Under the pieces are notes generated by a model. The model saw only the letters and a list, made by a program, of their open reading frames with translations. It searched no databases and was not told the origin of the DNA. A program made the position numbers and the translations under genes. This document shows, one piece after another, positions 1,057 through 26,730 of a DNA stretch of 64,000 nt; positions within the stretch are counted from its first letter, which is position 1, and the number at the start of each line of letters is the position of its first letter. Source of the stretch: an uncultured Alphaproteobacteria bacterium (GTDB lineage: Bacteria; Pseudomonadota; Alphaproteobacteria; RF32; CAG-239); contig CAKQUE010000001.1 in the NCBI GenBank assembly GCA_934277435.1, positions 65,652-129,651 of the forward strand, read 5' to 3'.

Positions 1057-1260
1057 AACAACTTCCCCTTTTTTCAATTTAACAACAAAAAAACCGCCGA
1101 AAAAGCGGCCGGAAGTTGACAACTACTTTACACAAGATAGCGTAGCATATTAGCTAATAGCATATTTTGCTACCTTCCGGCCAGTTGAGCCAGAAGTTAT
1201 GCTAGTTTAGTGTCCGCTATTGCAGACATGTGTAAAAGAGGTTGTCACGCCCCAGACAGA
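1057..1260 (-). promoter_or_regulatory. Structured 5' leader of pilin paralog 1: long-range closing helix, internal hairpins, and a GC hairpin plus U7 tract (intrinsic-terminator-like) immediately before the RBS, with an alternative antiterminator pairing
   Basis: On the minus-strand RNA, CCGGCCGC-UUUUUCG-GCGG is followed by UUUUUUU and ends about 25 nt before the ATG. A 9-nt segment (plus 1174-1182) is perfectly complementary to the 5' half of this hairpin (plus 1107-1115). A closing helix pairs plus 1241-1246 with 1116-1122 and flanking bases. The homologous leader at 19727-19921 supports a functional element. Confidence 0.4.
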
Positions 1261-19108: not shown

Positions 19109-19726
19109 TTAGAAGTTCAAAATCAACGAACAATAGCGCAAATCTTCATCATCTATACATGATTTGCATATTTGATTTATTTCTGTAAGTTTCAAATCAC
19201 GTAAACACTCGGTATTTTCATCACCGCAATATGCATTGCCATAATAATAACTTGAGGGAAATTGCCAACGATAAAAACGAACCATGTATAAAACATCGCT
19301 TAGCGGCTGAGCAAAATCTCGAAGCATTGCTTCACAAAATTTGCCTGCGGCTTTGCCATTGCCTTTTCCTTGAATTATTTCCAGTTGAAAATGCCCCGAA
19401 CGAGTGAATATTCCAACTTGATTTCCCCAAGTATCCCTTAAATCTTGAACACTAACTCTAGACCATGTTTCCGGAACTAAATTCATAGCCTTAACCGTTT
19501 CAACTAAGGGATACTGCGTTCCCTCTTTATTTATATTGTTAAATTCATCTATATGTTCAACTAAACCCGCCACAAACATCGAATATTCGCCGACAGTCTT
19601 ATTTATCCGCCACATTTCCATAGCTTTTGAATATCCCGCAATACCACCGACAGACAACACTCCAATAATAGCAAGTACCCCAAGCATTTCTATCATTGAT
19701 CGACCTTGTTGATTTTTAATTTTCAT
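19109..19726 (-). CDS. Type IV pilin-like protein with a prepilin-type N-terminal cleavage/methylation domain (pilin paralog 2), 205 aa from ATG at 19726
   Basis: N-terminus MKIKNQQG|RSMIEMLGVLAIIGVLSVGGIAGYSKAM is nearly identical to paralog 1 over the class III signal; the C-terminal domain is diverged and Cys-rich. RBS AAGGAG upstream of the ATG at 19726. Confidence 0.6.
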   Translation of the reverse strand: MKIKNQQGRSMIEMLGVLAIIGVLSVGGIAGYSKAMEMWRINKTVGEYSMFVAGLVEHIDEFNNINKEGTQYPLVETVKAMNLVPETWSRVSVQDLRDTWGNQVGIFTRSGHFQLEIIQGKGNGKAAGKFCEAMLRDFAQPLSDVLYMVRFYRWQFPSSYYYGNAYCGDENTECLRDLKLTEINQICKSCIDDEDLRYCSLILNF

Positions 19727-19921
19727 ACATCTGAACTCCTTAAACACCAAAAACAAAACCCGCTTTTAGGCGGGCGGATGTTCAGAAACCGTGTATACGC
19801 AAACGGCTCGGCTTATTCAGCTCATAGCCTTATTTAGCCGACATCCGTCCAGCGGAAATCGGCATATAAAAATTTAAGTCGTTTATGCATAACGACTGCG
19901 TATACAAAAAGGGTTTCTGAC
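19727..19921 (-). promoter_or_regulatory. Structured 5' leader of pilin paralog 2, homologous to the leader at 1057-1260, with a terminator-like hairpin plus U-tract abutting the RBS
   Basis: Minus-strand RNA: the closing helix UCAGAAACC/GUAUACGCA pairs with UGCGUAUAC/GGUUUCUGA (plus 19783-19801 with 19897-19920). It contains internal hairpins and a GCUAUGAGCUGAAUAAGCC block homologous to paralog 1. A terminal CCCGC-CUAAAA-GCGGG hairpin is followed by UUUUGUUUUUG. The alternative pairing GACGGAUGU/ACAUCCGCC overlaps the 5' strand of the terminator. Confidence 0.4.
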
Positions 19922-20072: not shown

Positions 20073-20390
20073 TTATTTATAAGATTCTATCCAAGAAGAA
20101 ATTGTTGATTGTGTGTTTAATCCAACTTTAGTGTCAACTTGTTTGCCGTCTTTAAACAAAAACATGGTTGGAATACTGCGAATCCCAAATTGACTTGCTG
20201 TTTCAGGCGAATCATCAACGTTCATTTTATAAATTTTTACATCATTTCCCATTTCTTCATCAATAGCTTCCAAAATAGGCCCCAGCTGACGGCATGGTCC
20301 ACACCATTCTGCCCAAAAATCAACCAAAACAAGTCCTTTGGAATTTAAAACATTTTCAGAAAACTGATTATCAGTTAACGGTTGCGTCAT
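20073..20390 (-). CDS. trxA: Thioredoxin
   Basis: WCGPC active site, 105 aa, located downstream of addA. Confidence 0.9.
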   Translation of the reverse strand: MTQPLTDNQFSENVLNSKGLVLVDFWAEWCGPCRQLGPILEAIDEEMGNDVKIYKMNVDDSPETASQFGIRSIPTMFLFKDGKQVDTKVGLNTQSTISSWIESYK

Positions 20391-20483
20391 AATTTTTCTC
20401 CTCTAACATAAAAAATGATAATTTCTATATAGTCTTATTTTTGCTAATATTAAAGTCTATTAACAAATAAGACAACAAAATTT

Positions 20484-23400
20484 TCAGCCAACTCTCATTA
20501 ATCTGGTTTCATTAGTCCACAAAATATAGGTTTCAACCGGCTTACCGCTGTATATTTTTTGCACCAGCTTAGCGTAAGTGTTTAGCTGATTTACATAAGC
20601 CGGCGGTGTTTCGGCCAAATTTTTAGCTGCCGGACGATTGGTTTTGAAATCAACTACCATAATTTTATGAGGTAAAATAATCAATCTATCCAGTTGGGCA
20701 GAAATAATTTTTCCCTCAACTTCACCGACAATCGGAACTTCAGCCCGAGAATTTTCACCAAAAATCTCCGAAAATTCAGCTTGTTCGAACAAATTCAATA
20801 CTTCGTTTTTTATTTGTTCTTTTTGTGATAACGAAAAATCTGTAGCGTTTTTAGCCAAATATTCATCAATAATTGCTCCCGTATCGTTACTATTTTGCGA
20901 TAAAAACTGCAATAATTTATGTATTAAGGTTCCGCGGCGATAATAATTTCCACTTTCCGCCAATGGAGAAGTCGAATCCACATCTTCCTCTTCATCAAAG
21001 CGCGATGGCGTATATGGCTTGGCCAATAAGGACTCGCTTTCAGCCGCACTAGACACCCAATCTTCCAGCGGCGGCATCCTATCTTTGCCGGATAAAGATT
21101 GCTTTTGTTTTTTAGCAATTACTTCCGGTTCGATAATTTCATAATTTTTACCGTTTTCAACCCCGTTTGTTTTCAATGTTTGTTCGCATAATTTATACCA
21201 AGAATTGCTATCAGCGCCCTTGTTGCCGCAAAAACCGCAGATATACAACCGGTCTTCGGCTCTGGTCAAGGCCACATACAAAAGCCGCCGGTATTCTTCT
21301 AGAGTTTTACGGCTGTTTTCTTCTTTTACGCTCGCACACATATTGTCATAATAAGTCTTGTTAAGCGGATAATAAGCTATATCATTATCCCAAAGCAGCG
21401 CCTGTTCGTTTTTAATATTTTTCATACGCACCGTATCGGGTAAAAAGACTACCGGAGCCTGCAAACCTTTTGAACCATGCACAGTCATCAATCGCACCGC
21501 ATCGGCGTCTTTTTGTTCTGTTTCGCGTTTGACTTCAACTTCTGTCCGACCTATCCAATCAATAAAACCTTGCAAACTTGGAATATGCTCTTGTTCATAA
21601 GAAATAGTCAAATTGATAAACTCGTCTAAAGCGTCTTCAACCTCTATTCCCATGCGTTCAGTAAATTTATGGCGGCCGTCCATTGTGGTCAGAACATAAT
21701 TAAACAGCTCATACGGACGAACATAATCAATTTTATCCGATAAAATTTTCAAAGAATTATATGCTTCTGAATATTCCGGAAAATCGCCCAATCTTGACCA
21801 TAACGGGGCTTTACCGCGGTTATAACAAAGTTTCAATAAATCGTCATCGTCCAAACCAAATATCGGAGATTTCAACACTTCTGCCAAAGCTAAATCGTCA
21901 TTATTCAGTAGCAGAAACTTGCCTAAAGAAATTAAATCCTGCACGGCGATTTGCTCACCCAACTTTAATTTATCCGCACCGCTGATATTAACGCCGTTAT
22001 TTTTGCAGGCGCGGATAAACTCATTCACAAAACTGCTTCTAGTTTGCACCAAAACCATTATATCTCGATAGTGCAGATGTTTAACCTCTACTAACTCTTT
22101 GATTTTATCGGTTATGGCTTTTGCTAAAAGATTTTTAACCGACACTTCACGGCTCATTTCAATCGGTGGAAATTGATTATATTCTTTATCTTTTTTCTCC
22201 GCCACCAACAACGGCCAAATTTCCACCTTTCCAAATTCTCCGGCGCGAAAAGGAATATGATTTACGGTTTCATCAACAGCAGTCACACCTTTTGAATTTT
22301 CCGGATTGCTAAAAAGCATATTCACCGTATTGAGCACAGCGGCAGAAGACCGGAAAGACACCGATAAATTGATTTTTTGGAAATCTGCCGCAGCTTTTTG
22401 AGCAAAATAAACTGACATATCATCAAATTTGTCAGGATCAGCCCCTTGAAAGCTATAAATTGACTGTTTTCGGTCACCAACCGCGAATACCGTGCGTTTT
22501 TTTTCGCTGCTGCCAGCGCCGGCAAAAAATTCCGTACTCAAAGACTTTACTATTTCCCATTGGTTTGGCGAGGTGTCTTGAGCCTCGTCAATCAAAATAT
22601 GGTCTATACCGCCGTCCAATTTAAACAAAACCCACGAAGCAACAGAATCATCTGCCAGCAAGTTACGCGTCAATAAAATTAAATCTTCATAATCCAAACG
22701 CGAGTGCTTATTTTTAAAATCTTGATATCGGTTGTTTAGTTCTCGCGCTATTGCCAATACTGAAGATGTGGCTTGATACAATCTGATTTTACAAAGTTTT
22801 TCTTCATTTTTCAATACGCGTTCCGCTTCTGATTGCAAACGCTCCGCCACATGCGAATCGGCGGCGCACGAATTTTTATCCGCCTGTTTTTTTGGTAAAC
22901 AACCTTCTTTGGTTAAAAATAAACTTTTATATTTGTTGTAGTCCTCATAGCCTAAACGCCCCTGCAGCAGCAAACGCTCAAATTCTTCCGCCCGCTCGGC
23001 GTCTTTTTTTCCACCTTGCAAAAGGGCCGCGATGTTAGCCCGCAAATCAGCAATATTTATTTTTGCCATAAACTCGTCTATTGCTGTTTTTTCTGTTTCA
23101 TCGGCAAAAATTCCTAATTTTTGAGCAAGAGCTTTATCAAAATCTGTTTTATCTTTATAATTTTTCAGCATATCGGCAATTTTGGTTTTATTGCTTGTTA
23201 TATCCTTCATTACCTTAGGAAAAGAATTCTCCGTTAAATTTTCGGTCAGATATTGCATCGCTTTTTTGACTGGGCTTTCTTTTCCGTATTCTATCTGCTC
23301 TAACAGGTCTTTTTGAATTTGTGCTAAGGCGTCTTCCGCGCTTTCATCGTCCAAAATATCAAAATACGGTGAAATTCCGGCTTCTAACGGAAAGCGTTTT

Positions 23401-23843
23401 AGGACTTCTTGGCAAAAGCTATGTATGGTCTGAATCTTTATGCCTCCTGGGGTATCAAGTAATATGGCAAAAAGAGTCCGCGCCCGACGCTTATATTTTT
23501 TCAAAATATCCGTATTTTTTATTTCATCGCCCAAGAGTTCGAACAAACTCTTTTCCAAATCTTCTTCACCCCAAACGGCCCAATCGCTCAAACGCTCGGA
23601 AATACGCGTATTCATTTCAACGGCGGCAGCTTTAGTGTAGGTAAGGCACAAAATTCGCTGCGGATTAACGCCATTTAGCAGCAAACGTAAAACTCTATCC
23701 GACAAAACTTTTGTTTTTCCGGTTCCGGCAGAAGCTTCAACCCACACTGATTTATCCGGATTAGCGGCGGCTCGTTGCTGTGATGTAGCTAAATTACCTC
23801 TTTCTTTGCGTAAATTTATAAATTCTTCTTTAGTTTTCATCAA
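20484..23843 (-). CDS. addA: Double-strand break repair helicase AddA (UvrD-like helicase plus C-terminal PD-(D/E)xK nuclease)
   Basis: N-terminal Walker A SAGTGKT, UvrD/Rep helicase motifs, ~1119 aa; overlaps the upstream addB in a characteristic operon. Confidence 0.85.
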   Translation of the reverse strand: MMKTKEEFINLRKERGNLATSQQRAAANPDKSVWVEASAGTGKTKVLSDRVLRLLLNGVNPQRILCLTYTKAAAVEMNTRISERLSDWAVWGEEDLEKSLFELLGDEIKNTDILKKYKRRARTLFAILLDTPGGIKIQTIHSFCQEVLKRFPLEAGISPYFDILDDESAEDALAQIQKDLLEQIEYGKESPVKKAMQYLTENLTENSFPKVMKDITSNKTKIADMLKNYKDKTDFDKALAQKLGIFADETEKTAIDEFMAKINIADLRANIAALLQGGKKDAERAEEFERLLLQGRLGYEDYNKYKSLFLTKEGCLPKKQADKNSCAADSHVAERLQSEAERVLKNEEKLCKIRLYQATSSVLAIARELNNRYQDFKNKHSRLDYEDLILLTRNLLADDSVASWVLFKLDGGIDHILIDEAQDTSPNQWEIVKSLSTEFFAGAGSSEKKRTVFAVGDRKQSIYSFQGADPDKFDDMSVYFAQKAAADFQKINLSVSFRSSAAVLNTVNMLFSNPENSKGVTAVDETVNHIPFRAGEFGKVEIWPLLVAEKKDKEYNQFPPIEMSREVSVKNLLAKAITDKIKELVEVKHLHYRDIMVLVQTRSSFVNEFIRACKNNGVNISGADKLKLGEQIAVQDLISLGKFLLLNNDDLALAEVLKSPIFGLDDDDLLKLCYNRGKAPLWSRLGDFPEYSEAYNSLKILSDKIDYVRPYELFNYVLTTMDGRHKFTERMGIEVEDALDEFINLTISYEQEHIPSLQGFIDWIGRTEVEVKRETEQKDADAVRLMTVHGSKGLQAPVVFLPDTVRMKNIKNEQALLWDNDIAYYPLNKTYYDNMCASVKEENSRKTLEEYRRLLYVALTRAEDRLYICGFCGNKGADSNSWYKLCEQTLKTNGVENGKNYEIIEPEVIAKKQKQSLSGKDRMPPLEDWVSSAAESESLLAKPYTPSRFDEEEDVDSTSPLAESGNYYRRGTLIHKLLQFLSQNSNDTGAIIDEYLAKNATDFSLSQKEQIKNEVLNLFEQAEFSEIFGENSRAEVPIVGEVEGKIISAQLDRLIILPHKIMVVDFKTNRPAAKNLAETPPAYVNQLNTYAKLVQKIYSGKPVETYILWTNETRLMRVG

Positions 23844-26730
23844 AATCTTCCTTTACAGACCATTCTAAAAATCGTGATAAATGGTCATAATCCGTATAAC
23901 TTGGGGCGTTGTGCGGAATTGGTTTAGCCAAATACGGAGTTGTAACACAATCATAGCTGCTAATCCATGTTTGCAGATACTGCATTGTTTTTTCTAAACC
24001 GCTGCTGCTTTGTTCTTCATTGCAAACAATTTCTTTTTCGCCCAGTTTCCAATAACGCAAAGACTCTACTTTTTTGGCTGGTATGTCAGGAAAGCCACCA
24101 TGTTCGGCAATCAATCCCTCTATCGGCAGCTGCGGAGCCACACCGGTTTCAACTTCTTTTACATTGCGGACACGGCCTGTTTTGTAGTCTAAAATATTAA
24201 GTCTGCCGTCCTTAGTTTCATCTATACGATCAGCTTTGGCTGTAATGGTAAATTTTCCGCCGCTGGAATCAAAACAAAGACTCCCCTCTATCTCATTATG
24301 CACAAAAGCAACCTCTGAGCGATAATTTTTTTCTATCGCTGTCAGCCAATTTATGGTTTTAACAAATCTAGGCCACCAAAAAGCTTTTATATCAGCACTG
24401 ATATTTTGCGCCGCAAATTCATGTTCGCCGATTTTTAACAGTTGTTCTTCGGCATCTGCCGGATAAGCACCGGTGTTATATTTGTTATTAAATTTTTCAA
24501 TAACCGCATGAACAATATTTCCGTAATCACGGAAAGCCAAATTCTCATCAAGATTCTGCAACGGATATAGTCCCAATATGTATTTAGCATATATGCTATA
24601 CGGATCACGCATCAGCATTTCAAAGTTTACGGCCGAAAGTTTGCGCGGACGCATTGCCACCGGCGGACATGGCCGAGGAGATAGTATTTTTTTCAAAACA
24701 GCAGCCCGTTCCCAATATTTAGCCCATAAAGCATATTTACCATCTTGCAGATAAGCATATTTTTCTTTATTTTCACCAAAATTCGCAGCCAGCACTGTTT
24801 CTAAACGCAGCCACCAACGAGATTTATTGGTTGGTGTTCCGTCAACCCGCTCGGCTCTGGTTAAATAAACATCTTTTGCATTAAGTAAATGGGCAAAATC
24901 AGCAGCCATAACTCCGATAGAACGTTCCGGAAGCGGAAAACCAAAGTCCTTTTTCATTGGACGCGACATCCACATATCTGCCGACGGCAATTTTGGCCAC
25001 ACGCCTTCATTGGCTTCTCCGATTATTGTAACATCAAACTGCGTCAACCGCGCCTCTATTGGTCCCAATATTTTTATTCTCGGGTGCATACCGAATCGAA
25101 CACGTACATTTTGTTCCATCAACATACATTCCAACAGCGGCAAATAATCCCGCGCATTGATATTTTCCAGTAACTCGCTTTTTTGCAAAAGTTCATTTAC
25201 AAATTTGGCCGCCGCAGTACCGGAATCATTTTTCCAGATAATTTTTTCGCCGGTCTTAATATCTGTATCAGCCAAACGCTCTGCTGTTTTTATGTGGCAG
25301 ATAAACAACTCCTTAAAATTAACAACCGGCTGCGAATATAGTTCTGCTAAAGGCTGCAAGCACTCTTTTATCTTTGAAACAAAATCAGTCTGCTGAGCAG
25401 ATAAATTTTCTTTTTTACGCCAGCTTAGCTCCAAACTACGAACATTTTGATTAAAAACACTGGATTTTTGCCCACAGGAAGTAAACGGATGCTTTAATAA
25501 AGATAGCAAACTAACCTGTGAAAAATCATTTTCCAAAACATTTATAAGCAAACGCAAATAAACGCCAATCGGAGTCAAACTCAATGGTTGCCCCGCCGAA
25601 TCGTCGGCAACAATGTTCCATCTTTTTAATTCGGAAACAACACGACGAGCTAAATTTCTATCCATTGTAACCAAAGCCGCGGTTTTTGCAGGAGTTTCCA
25701 AAGTTTGGCGCATCAACAAAGCAATCGCCTGCGCTTCTTGTCGGATATCGCTGCAACTTATAAGTTTTAAGCCGGAAAATGCTTCATCCGGCAGCTGATA
25801 AGATGAAAGTTTCCGCCATTCTGCCGAACTGGCCGCCGGACGCATAATTTCTGAAACCAAACGCTCGCGCGGAGTAAAAGCATTGTTGGGCAGACAACAA
25901 ATATCTGCGCGGTTTAGATTTAAATAATCCAATAATTCTTTAAGCTCAAACTGCGGATGATTTTCATCAATTTGTTCCCACGCAGAATCCTCTAAATAAT
26001 TATCCAAGCCATAAAGCCAAACTTCTCCATTTGGTAACTCTGCCACGGTTTTAAGCAATTTCTTCAGCAAAGGAAACGCCGCTGTTGAACCAGCCACTAC
26101 TATTTTTTGCGTAGTTTGGCTTTGACGCCATATCTCTATTTCGGTTTGCAAAAGCTGATTGCGGCGAAAAGAACTGTCGACAACACCGCGTTCTTGTAAT
26201 ATTTGCGGCCAAAACTCGGTAATAATTGCCAATAATTTCAAACTTTCTTGCCAATGTGCGGCATATTCGGTTGGCACAATTTCATTTAGACGAGAAAAAT
26301 CCAAATTTTCATTATACGCTAAATCCATCAAATCCGCCAAATTTTCCGCCAAGGCATAGGCCTGAGCTAAAGACAACCGTCCCAATCCCAATTCGGCAGG
26401 TTTTTGCATAATCAATCTGGTAAAAATCAAAACTCTTTTGGTTTTAGAAATTTCAGGTTGCAAATTTTTTATCACATCATGATTGCCTGTTAAAAAAACT
26501 TCATCTTCTTCAACATCGGCTATCGGCAAAATTTGCGGCAATATCGTTGGTTCTAAACCGCGCAGACGCACAAAAGCATCTGACAAACTTTGGCAGGCGC
26601 GGCGATTTGGCAATAAAAACAAAACCTTTGCCAATTCTTCCGGCGCAGCTTCATAACTTTTCAAAAAATGCCCAGCTAAAACATCAACAAACGAATCGCT
26701 TGCATTGATGCTATAAATTTTTGCAGCCAT
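23830..26730 (-). CDS. addB: Double-strand break repair protein AddB (alphaproteobacterial type)
   Basis: 966 aa, upstream of and overlapping addA, C-terminal nuclease-like region. Confidence 0.75.
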   Translation of the reverse strand: MAAKIYSINASDSFVDVLAGHFLKSYEAAPEELAKVLFLLPNRRACQSLSDAFVRLRGLEPTILPQILPIADVEEDEVFLTGNHDVIKNLQPEISKTKRVLIFTRLIMQKPAELGLGRLSLAQAYALAENLADLMDLAYNENLDFSRLNEIVPTEYAAHWQESLKLLAIITEFWPQILQERGVVDSSFRRNQLLQTEIEIWRQSQTTQKIVVAGSTAAFPLLKKLLKTVAELPNGEVWLYGLDNYLEDSAWEQIDENHPQFELKELLDYLNLNRADICCLPNNAFTPRERLVSEIMRPAASSAEWRKLSSYQLPDEAFSGLKLISCSDIRQEAQAIALLMRQTLETPAKTAALVTMDRNLARRVVSELKRWNIVADDSAGQPLSLTPIGVYLRLLINVLENDFSQVSLLSLLKHPFTSCGQKSSVFNQNVRSLELSWRKKENLSAQQTDFVSKIKECLQPLAELYSQPVVNFKELFICHIKTAERLADTDIKTGEKIIWKNDSGTAAAKFVNELLQKSELLENINARDYLPLLECMLMEQNVRVRFGMHPRIKILGPIEARLTQFDVTIIGEANEGVWPKLPSADMWMSRPMKKDFGFPLPERSIGVMAADFAHLLNAKDVYLTRAERVDGTPTNKSRWWLRLETVLAANFGENKEKYAYLQDGKYALWAKYWERAAVLKKILSPRPCPPVAMRPRKLSAVNFEMLMRDPYSIYAKYILGLYPLQNLDENLAFRDYGNIVHAVIEKFNNKYNTGAYPADAEEQLLKIGEHEFAAQNISADIKAFWWPRFVKTINWLTAIEKNYRSEVAFVHNEIEGSLCFDSSGGKFTITAKADRIDETKDGRLNILDYKTGRVRNVKEVETGVAPQLPIEGLIAEHGGFPDIPAKKVESLRYWKLGEKEIVCNEEQSSSGLEKTMQYLQTWISSYDCVTTPYLAKPIPHNAPSYTDYDHLSRFLEWSVKEDFDEN

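Follow-up and report, generated by a model that had tools for sequence, protein, structure and literature searches.

The 64,000-nt stretch of DNA analysed here (the window, from contig CAKQUE010000001.1 of an uncultured Alphaproteobacteria bacterium) contains two genes for pilin-like proteins, and the first is preceded by a leader with the potential to form alternative helices and a terminator. Does this leader control the gene that follows it, and if so, how? Pilin-like gene 1 is the coding sequence at 403-1056 on the minus strand, taken from the list of open reading frames (ORFs) and its translation. Its product starts MKNNQYGRSMIEMLGVLAII, and this prepilin-type N-terminus gives weak matches to N_methyl and IV_pilin_GFxxxE. 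Pilin-like gene 2 occupies 19109-19726, also on the minus strand. The two proteins are 36% identical across 148 aligned residues, and their N-terminal helices are nearly identical. The stretch that holds leader 1 (1280 to 1057 on the minus strand) lies directly 5' of pilin-like gene 1; all coordinates below are those of the window, and all features of the two leaders lie on the minus strand. Our verdict is that leader 1 is probably a real conditional terminator and translation switch. On balance we think it probable that the segment from 1057 to ~1276 acts in cis as a two-state leader, belonging to a family of ~215-nt structured leaders that are OFF by default.

The preliminary description of this region had drawn attention to a 9-nt complementarity within the leader, the coordinates and sequences of which are exact. 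Strand B (GGCCGGAAG in the RNA, 1182-1174) is the perfect complement of strand C (CUUCCGGCC, 1115-1107), and the last four bases of C begin the terminator hairpin. Upstream of both is strand A (CUUCUGGCU, 1196-1188), a near-copy of strand C that can form a 9-bp hairpin with B, including two G.U pairs. A perfect inverted repeat of at least 9 nt was reached by 5.3% of 300 dinucleotide-preserving shuffles of the 204-nt stretch in which this one lies. The repeat alone is thus not significant, and the case has to rest on comparative evidence, i.e. on covariation among homologues.

The hairpin and U-tract had also been argued not to be the terminator of an upstream gene, and we agree, because there is no co-directional gene upstream of leader 1 and a promoter-like site is present 5' of it. 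The neighbouring gene is that for ribosomal protein L17 (rplQ, 1509-1964), which is on the plus strand. The promoter-like region (1309-1281) comprises a -35 hexamer TTTACT (1309-1304), a 17-nt spacer and a -10 hexamer TAATCT (1286-1281), and these align with the CTTTAC-N17-TAAAAT-like hexamers of homologous leaders. A simple promoter scan left the weak -10 of leader 1 unscored, while scoring the equivalent site of leader 2. The predicted start of transcription is at ~1274-1276, at the 5' hairpin P0. The ATG of the pilin gene is ~35 nt past the terminator U-tract, and no promoter-like site of normal spacing was found between the two.

Homologues were sought by using both window pilins as query, taking one genome per species. 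This gave more than 572 pilin relatives, all of them in metagenome-assembled genomes (MAGs) that are labelled as uncultured gut Alphaproteobacteria or are evidently mis-binned gut MAGs. Many of these genes lie 50-290 nt from a contig end, and contig ends at such a distance upstream of pilin genes are a sign of assembly breaks at multi-copy sequence. From these a set of 80 pilin-anchored loci (L001-L080) was assembled, to which the window was added. The set contains 102 pilin N-termini, with the almost invariant sequence GRSM(I/V)EMLGVLAIIGVLSVG(G/A)IAGYSKAM. The pilin-like family is hugely expanded in these uncultured gut Alphaproteobacteria, with the first ~30 mature residues almost invariant and the C-terminal domains divergent.

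A first round identified 17 leaders that are clearly homologous from promoter to ATG. By sequence they divide into type A, which includes leader 1, and type B, which includes leader 2. A degenerate pattern was built on the P2-P3-J3/1 part of the element alone (helices and joining segment are described below), the downstream gene not being included. This pattern matched twice in the window, where 0 matches were expected. It matched 16 times in the loci, five of these beyond the first-round picks, and in at least 120 stretches of metagenome contigs, mostly from human-gut and rumen samples. Chance matches lacking P1 or P2 pairing (e.g. L140 and L141) and a stretch with no clear terminator (L121) were dropped. 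After parsing and filtering at least 89 distinct leaders were left, and pair counts were made on an 86-row manual alignment based on anchors.

A covariance model of the junction and terminator (R1) finds exactly two copies in the window, with scores of 93.0 bits for leader 1 and 96.6 bits for leader 2. Both are full length, with E values of ~1e-20, while the next match in the window scores 16.9 bits and is the palindromic P1 on the opposite strand. The leaders of the two pilin-like genes are thus homologous, as had been proposed. The blocks of similarity that had been quoted between them prove to be the P2 arm on the one hand, and strand C with the terminator on the other. In the 80 loci the same model finds 24 copies, including more divergent ones at 31-68 bits. 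Conservation had been taken to argue for function on the strength of two paralogues; it extends far past these, as seen with the covariance model, the pattern search and the metagenomes.

Several copies of the leader are present per genome, and the element is not specific to pilin genes, about half of the copies standing before other genes. A pilin N-terminus is encoded within 900 nt downstream in 75 of the 139 pattern matches listed. Among the remaining 60 matches some precede pilin variants or pilins with long inserted leader peptides, or arise by chance, but most precede other genes. These include many genes for small lipoproteins that have a lipobox and no Pfam match, together with those for a Stealth/GT8 protein, a group-1 glycosyltransferase, a sulfatase-family protein, an EcoRI-type adenine methylase and an N6 DNA methylase. 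Conversely, only about one in four pilin genes of the 80 loci has the leader, and others have a plain promoter.

The helices of the leader are maintained across the 86 aligned sequences. Canonical pairs account for 93.8% of positions in P1 (i.e. B:C), compared with 31-42% when the partner strand is slid out of register, and for 84.6% in A:B (25-48% slid). The corresponding values are 98.3% for the outer part of P2 (17-39% slid), 90.1% for its inner part, 96.3% for P3 (12-41% slid) and 97.2% for the terminator (30-55% slid). Over all the helices the slid controls span 4-55%, and every helix has many sequences that are changed on both sides, with compensatory changes in A:B and in the terminator. 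At position 4 of P1, 59 leaders have C-G and 20 have U-A, while at position 8 the counts are 57 for U-A and 29 for A-U; neither position has a mismatch. In all 17 first-round leaders P1 forms 8-10 bp, and in all 17 the terminator hairpin begins at position 6 of strand C, so that four nucleotides are shared with P1. The A:B hairpin is likewise found in each of the 17, with 10-13 bp and a stability of -12.6 to -20.7 kcal/mol, and it also covers the first 3-6 nt of P2. Compensatory evolution is thus shown to maintain both of two mutually exclusive sets of helices. The three-strand switch that had been proposed, in which B pairs either with A in a local hairpin or with C, is real in the sense that strands A, B and C all co-evolve.

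Conserved G.U pairs are abundant (e.g. in 43-65 of the 86 leaders at several positions), which indicates structure on this strand of RNA rather than a palindrome in DNA. A second, model-fitted alignment (A6, covering P1, P2, P3 and the inner pairs of the terminator) has 96.0% paired cells, compared with 77.3% in shuffles. It has compensatory change at 22 of 27 pairs, with slid partners at 27-44%. Its covariation score is 0.547 against 0.247, a value as high being reached in none of 500 shuffles. This alignment leans towards the R1 model, while the anchor-based alignment is independent of it. Plain MAFFT alignments place the leader types out of register in the inner part of P2 and in P3, and RNAalifold applied to them misses the long-range helix PK2; for this reason anchor-based parsing and covariance-model alignment were used instead.

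The 5' arm of the leader is connected to the downstream module by two long-range helices, PK1 and PK2. The arm begins with P0, the 5'-terminal hairpin (1273-1254, GGAUAGGC-GAUA-GUCUGUCU), which folds in nearly all the homologues listed and covaries (e.g. GAAAGCGC/GCGCUUUU and GGUAUGG/CCAUACU); RNAalifold also predicts it, with compensatory changes. The next hairpin is H2 (1253-1238), with a GGGG/CCUC stem that is replaced by AGGG/CCCU or GAGG/CCUC among homologues, and a loop that holds box a1 (UGACAA, 1247-1242). Box b1 (UUUUACACA, 1237-1229) follows H2, and is succeeded by hairpin H3 (1228-1211, UGUCUG-CAAUAG-CGGACA), which is kept and covaries in homologues (e.g. AGUCGUU/AACGACU and GCGUC/GACGU). 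Strand A then completes the arm.

In PK1 the H2 loop (a1) is paired with J3/1, which contains box a' (UUGUCA, 1122-1117 in leader 1). This helix has 6-8 bp in 79 of 83 leaders, compared with mostly 2-5 bp for mismatched partners. Its strands change in step, from UGACAA/UUGUCA in leader 1 to UCAGAAA/UUUCUGA, UCGUAG/UUACGA, UGGUAG/UUACCA, UAGUAA/UUACUA and others. RNAalifold working on an unguided alignment predicted PK1 independently, with both sides changed in 8-12 of 17 sequences. The same calculation extends the helix by pairing the invariant GGG of the 5' strand of H2 (1250-1253) with UCC of strand C (1111-1113); these columns are invariant, and the extension would be a further possible partner of the anti-Shine-Dalgarno sequence described below.

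In PK2 box b1 is paired with box b' (UGUGUAAAG, 1134-1126), which is almost the whole of the apparent loop of P3. The pairs are UUUUACACA/UGUGUAAAG in leader 1 and UGUAUACGCAG/UUGCGUAUACA in leader 2. An unbroken run of 8-16 bp is found in 79 of 83 leaders, compared with mostly 4-6 bp for mismatched partners. The sequence of this helix is hypervariable, with 69 distinct loop sequences among 89 leaders, and it differs between the two copies on every two-copy contig.

A further complementarity connects strand C to the start of the gene. The sequence AACUUCC (1117-1111), comprising the last two nucleotides of J3/1 and the 5' half of strand C, is the exact complement of GGAAGUU (1066-1060) at the ribosome-binding site, i.e. 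the Shine-Dalgarno (SD) sequence ahead of the ATG (1056-1054), with a duplex energy of -9.5 kcal/mol. The ribosome-binding site also repeats the sequence of strand B. The exact 7-mer pair is present in 21 of 30 type-A leaders, while type-B leaders of non-pilin genes have a matching GGAUGU(U). The mean energy of the anti-SD/SD duplex in type A is -8.3 kcal/mol, against -4.5 kcal/mol with the anti-SD of the other type; for type B the gap is smaller (-6.2 against -5.4 kcal/mol across types). The complementarity tracks the type of the leader.

These pairings can be arranged into two alternative folds. The minimum free energy structure calculated by RNAfold for both window leaders contains both long-range helices, H3, A:B and the terminator (the OFF fold), and the anti-SD/SD helix is formed as well when the ribosome-binding site is included. 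The z-scores of the folds are -4.5 for leader 1 and -5.4 for leader 2. With the RNA extended through the U-tract, the energy penalty for forcing P1 to form is 14.5 kcal/mol for leader 1 and 22.1 kcal/mol for leader 2, so OFF is the default fold. The order of synthesis favours OFF too, since the polymerase reaches a1, b1 and A first, and b' comes out ahead of the 3' strand of P3. The calculations therefore point to OFF as the thermodynamic default, and probably the co-transcriptional one as well. The other fold (ON) is a three-way junction (1182-1107). It is made up of P1 (B and C), P2 (1173-1142, with an AAAUAU/UAAUA internal loop), P3 (1141-1122, holding box b') and J3/1. If its loop is engaged in a helix of 9-16 bp with another strand, a P3 of 5 bp would have to open, whence P1 and P3 would make up one fold, and b1:b' and A:B the alternative one.

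The mechanism that we propose is as follows. In the OFF state the 5' arm would pair with the downstream module in three segments, i.e. a1 with a', b1 with b', and A with B and the start of P2. Strand C would be left free, and its 3' four bases would nucleate the terminator hairpin (GGCCGCU-UUUUC-GGCGGUU, 1110-1092), followed by the U-rich tract (1091-1081), both of which the consensus scan also picked out. The AACUUCC part of strand C could then pair with the SD sequence. Transcription would stop ~35 nt before the ATG, and any messenger RNA arising by read-through would be masked from translation. In the ON state closure of the junction by B:C, P2 and P3 would deprive the terminator of four of its seven or eight pairs and sequester the anti-SD, allowing read-through and translation. 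A switch to ON would require a factor, protein or RNA, that stops the 5' arm from pairing. The sequences of P0, H2 and H3 hardly vary, which suggests a site for a protein on the 5' arm, while an ancestry of the c4 type (see below) suggests, by analogy, an RNA partner as the trigger. Dual control of transcription and translation is plausible for these leaders. We note that the structural features expected of an attenuator are present. A G+C-rich hairpin followed by a U-tract (U7 in leader 1) stands between promoter and start codon and is conserved and covarying. The antiterminator P1 shares bases with it (the first 4 nt of the hairpin are the last 4 nt of strand C), and A:B competes as an anti-antiterminator.

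Several points weigh against this interpretation. Some of the leaders were retrieved with a pattern that fixes certain positions; the partner strands that lie outside the pattern are B, the 5' strand of P2, the 3' strand of P3, A, a1 and b1. Many leaders are closely related, and the counts given above are therefore not of independent events. Type-B leaders, including leader 2, often have A.C at three distal positions of P1. At position 3 this mismatch is found in 33 of 86, so that P1 of type B is effectively 6 bp plus 2 bp. The terminator of leader 1 is weak, with seven pairs of which three are G.U, and an energy of -8.7 kcal/mol. The mutual exclusion of P3 and PK2 is argued on steric grounds, and termination, read-through and SD masking are all inferred. 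Lastly, OFF is so much the more stable that ON might rarely form without help.

The comparison with known RNAs places the leader closest to sRNA-Xcc1 (RF02221). Scanning the whole window with Rfam at gathering thresholds gave no matches. In e-value mode sRNA-Xcc1 was the sole recurrent match, always at full length and always below its gathering score of 53. It matched leader 1 at 27.9 bits (1099-1182) and leader 2 at 31.4 bits (19764-19850), together with 12 of 20 metagenomic copies at 27-39 bits. Other sub-threshold matches (Hrs13, isrK, PyrG leader and snoRNAs) were one-off, driven by the terminator or at chance level, and did not recur in homologues. Genuine sRNA-Xcc1 members were fetched with a pattern derived from the Rfam consensus, giving 31 stretches of viral contigs (L201-L231). 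The sRNA-Xcc1 model matched 13 of the 14 that were scanned at gathering, with 58.7-86.6 bits. On the genuine sites our R1 model scores 17.7-30 bits, so that the resemblance is reciprocal but weak.

In the literature sRNA-Xcc1 is described as a trans-acting small RNA (sRNA), detected in Xanthomonas as an 88-nt species, that is found upstream of symE or an ORF6N gene, including symE cassettes of integrons. The phage members have a further organization that we did not find stated in the sRNA-Xcc1 literature examined. Their J3/1 (UUUUGAG) and P3 loop (e.g. CUUUCGA) are complementary to an upstream hairpin loop (CUCAAAA) and an adjoining 7-mer. A second pair of boxes lies downstream, where the 7-mer runs directly into the GGA that forms part of the ribosome-binding site of an antirepressor-like gene. 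This layout (a1/b1 and a2/b2) is present in 22 of 24 distinct loci, with at least 11 different 7-mer specificities. The downstream genes encode proteins with ORF6N/KilA-N-like or Rha-like N-termini, an example of the element being L201:1373-1456 on the minus strand. Rfam C4, isrK and c4-a1b1 are matched directly upstream of sRNA-Xcc1 on the same strand at two of these loci (L201:1596-1794 and L208:2440-2625, both minus), so that two antisense modules stand in tandem before the antirepressor-like gene. The arrangement of boxes is one that we take to be that of the c4 antisense RNA of phages P1 and P7, i.e. a1 b1 - c4 - a2 b2. It suggests that sRNA-Xcc1 may be a cis-encoded, c4-like antisense regulator of the next gene, rather than trans-acting. 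This reinterpretation rests on the phage members, the integron symE contexts being taken from the literature only.

The gut leaders share with sRNA-Xcc1 a 9-bp P1, a P2 with an AAUA-type internal loop and a P3 of the GCCGU/ACGGU type. In both, a J3/1 of 6-7 nt (a') and the P3 loop (b') are complementary to an upstream hairpin loop (a1) and the sequence next to it (b1), and in both the element is located upstream of a gene in the same orientation. By contrast, the gut leaders score below the gathering threshold of 53, and by the Rfam criterion they are not members. They also lack a2/b2, the longest downstream complement of a' or b' being no longer than in mismatched controls. They have in addition strand A, a terminator that overlaps P1, an anti-SD in strand C, and the hairpins P0 and H3. 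Their b helix is of 8-16 bp, rather than 6-8 nt. The terminator of the gut leaders takes the position of the phage a2 hairpin, and strand C itself targets the ribosome-binding site. The gene contexts differ too, being chromosomal pilin, lipoprotein, glycosyltransferase and methylase genes for the gut leaders, as against prophage antirepressor-like or integron symE genes for sRNA-Xcc1.

The relationship to c4 RNA is similar. The c4 RNA of phage P1 reportedly blocks translation of icd/ant by pairing at a2/b2, with Rho-dependent termination as a secondary effect. In both systems a structured RNA is co-transcribed with the gene that it controls, specificity elements a' and b' match boxes in the same transcript, and the specificity sequences diverge between variants. 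The gut leaders differ in having no a2/b2, and in an output that would be an intrinsic terminator together with direct pairing to the SD sequence. Neither C4 (RF01695) nor c4-a1b1 (RF03163) was matched in the window even at E<=10, while both were detected in the control phage loci. The leaders thus fail the tests for membership of sRNA-Xcc1 (score, a2/b2 and context) and of C4 (no match). The sequence comparison nevertheless points to a distant and previously unrecognised relative of sRNA-Xcc1 and the phage c4-type antisense RNAs, and by analogy the leader would work like a derivative of the c4 design grafted onto an intrinsic-terminator attenuator.

With classical attenuators and the expression platforms of riboswitches the leaders have in common mutually exclusive helices that share strands, and a terminator right before the ORF. 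Unlike these, they have no leader peptide, no known aptamer, and no RAT-like or T-box-like signature in Rfam, and their anti-antiterminator arm is locked by two extra long-range helices, one of them hypervariable. Three other candidates were set aside on inspection by eye. For an ops/RfaH-like element the similarity to GGTAGC extends over only 6 nt and is absent in type B; a T-box has no match in Rfam; and the GGA in the A:B loop that might be a CsrA site is found only in type B.

Could the junction instead be the aptamer of a small-molecule riboswitch? In that case the junction and pseudoknots would form a ligand pocket, perhaps for a signalling nucleotide, and the ligand would set termination. 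The junction and pseudoknots, coupled to an expression platform whose terminator overlaps P1, are what might be expected, conserved unpaired A-rich loops (AAAUAW and DAAUA) flank P2, no leader peptide is present, and many copies precede genes related to the cell surface. There is also a parallel in Clostridioides difficile, where a cyclic di-GMP-II riboswitch upstream of pilA1 provides a conditional terminator controlling a type IV pilin gene. As proposed for the gut leaders, it is a 5' conditional terminator, of a class that occurs in many copies before genes for surface proteins, but the gut leaders have no match in Rfam to its sequence or structure. More generally, no known class of riboswitch was matched by the window or the metagenomic copies, the e-value scans returning only sRNA-Xcc1 and chance matches. 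Moreover, the AAUA loops and the junction are common to phage sRNA-Xcc1, whose target boxes indicate RNA-RNA pairing, and the downstream genes have no common metabolic theme. We regard a riboswitch as unlikely.

The likeness to an RNA that was detected as an sRNA raises a second alternative, for which we see a comparably small chance. The ~190-nt terminated transcript might itself be the product of a stand-alone gene for a trans-acting sRNA, using the single-stranded AACUUCC that precedes its terminator and U-tail as a seed against GGAAGUU ribosome-binding sites. On this view its location upstream of a pilin gene would be a coincidence, or leakage alone would account for expression of the pilin. 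The element has a promoter and a terminator of its own, the layout of the terminated OFF product is typical of an sRNA, and the same SD sequence is present in many of the genes that have the leader. On the other hand, more than 100 copies are found at a fixed short distance 5' of a co-oriented ORF that has no promoter of its own, and the SD is complementary to strand C of the same molecule. In addition, selection keeps P1, the competitor of the terminator, and this would be sensible only if read-through is regulated. A role in trans could coexist with one in cis.

The hypervariability of PK2 invites a third possibility, that of self-specific feedback by RNA. Transcripts in the ON state would expose a' and b' in the manner of a c4-type antisense RNA, bind a1 and b1 of nascent transcripts from the same locus and so propagate ON. 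The b helix would confer private specificity on each locus and allow independent, bistable switching of surface genes. The diversity of b1:b' noted above, and its divergence on every two-copy contig, are in favour of this. The fold energies suggest that the gap between the two folds would shrink greatly if PK1 and PK2 were lost, the phage relatives are antisense RNAs with specificity boxes, and the classes of gene resemble contingency loci. The proposal is purely inferential, however, and hypervariability is also expected where each strand has a single partner, or if it serves to keep paralogous leaders from mispairing with one another. We consider it improbable. There is a similarly slight chance that such private, self-propagating switches amount to heritable bistability locus by locus, i.e. 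an RNA equivalent of phase variation derived from a phage immunity module.

It is very improbable that the conservation reflects DNA without RNA function, such as a mobile element, a recombination site or the shared 5' end of duplicated genes. The sequence is multi-copy, the breaks in MAG contigs occur just 5' of pilin genes, and the N-terminal coding region of the pilins is nearly invariant. However, compensatory changes keep the helices while the sequence diverges, most clearly in PK2, the conserved G.U pairs would turn into A.C mismatches if read on the opposite strand or as DNA, and unrelated downstream genes are found in a fixed orientation and at a fixed distance. We reject attenuation of the trp type, in which translation of a leader peptide across strand A would choose between A:B and B:C, as scarcely credible: although A:B, B:C and C:terminator formally correspond to the classical 1:2, 2:3 and 3:4 layout, there is no conserved leader peptide among 83 leaders, an ATG-initiated ORF of at least 8 codons spans strand A in only 26 of the 83 with an SD-like motif in none, and close relatives lack the ATG that leader 2 has in its H3 loop.

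The cis-acting two-state leader thus remains our preferred reading. If it is correct, the leaders would be a large, undescribed family of cis-regulatory RNA with at least 89 distinct copies, several to a genome. The family would govern the variable surface repertoire of poorly known uncultured gut Alphaproteobacteria, including the expanded pilin-like family, lipoproteins, capsule and glycosyl transferases, and DNA methylases. It would unite an antisense module of the c4/sRNA-Xcc1 type, an intrinsic-terminator attenuator and SD masking, which are usually seen apart, and two long-range helices would hold the combined modules together, one of them evolving like a determinant of specificity. A lock in cis that is opened by removal of the 5' arm could also be a natural template for orthogonal synthetic riboregulators. 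The overall length of ~215 nt, the two long-range helices, the anti-Shine-Dalgarno, the non-pilin genes, the lack of a leader peptide and the likeness to sRNA-Xcc1 and c4 were all absent from the preliminary description.

Leader 2 (19981-19749, 5' of pilin-like gene 2, the 96.6-bit match to R1) has the same parts in the same order. Its promoter was identified by the promoter scan at 19981-19953, followed by P0 (19946-19927), box a1 (19920-19914), box b1 (19906-19896) and H3 (19897-19877). Strand A is at 19863-19853, strand B at 19850-19842 and strand C at 19780-19772, with b' at 19802-19792 and a' at 19788-19782. The terminator (19775-19758) and its U-tract (19757-19749) were located by terminator scan. 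H3 of leader 2 (AGUCGUU-AUGCAUA-AACGACU, then UAAAUUUUUA) was itself scored as terminator-like. A similarly placed hairpin, with U7 after it, separates the b1 box from the junction in the phage sRNA-Xcc1 loci. The 3' end of leader 2 is ATGTATGAAA (19721-19730, minus strand), in which the first ATG opens a four-codon frame, MYEN*. In relatives this first ATG is the start of MYKNFE..., while here the pilin frame runs from the second ATG (19726).

The window as a whole has a G+C content of 38.8%, and ARAGORN found neither tRNA nor tmRNA in it. The context is chromosomal, as seen from the genes for L17, TrxA, AddAB and TyrS. The gene order addB-addA-trxA is found at 20073-26730 on the minus strand, and AddA is of the alpha type (TIGR02784, 1085 bits); both features are in keeping with DNA of alphaproteobacterial origin. 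rplQ is normally the gene after rpoA, closing that operon; here it stands alone beside the divergent pilin-like gene. The L17 protein has an Ala/Glu-rich C-terminal tail, and it also matched the NCBIfam 'sunset domain variant' model below the cut-off.

In many of the pilin paralogues REP-like hairpin repeats (e.g. ggacactccgatcaagtcggagtgtgac and cgggcttgacccgaatatcc) are located between the start codon and the prepilin cleavage motif, upstream of the GRSM codons. Examples are L004:2715-3010 and L037:150-293, together with L038, L059 and L062. The reading frame appears to run through these repeats, which would give a long cleavable leader peptide (e.g. MDTPIKSECDSLCAGRSM).

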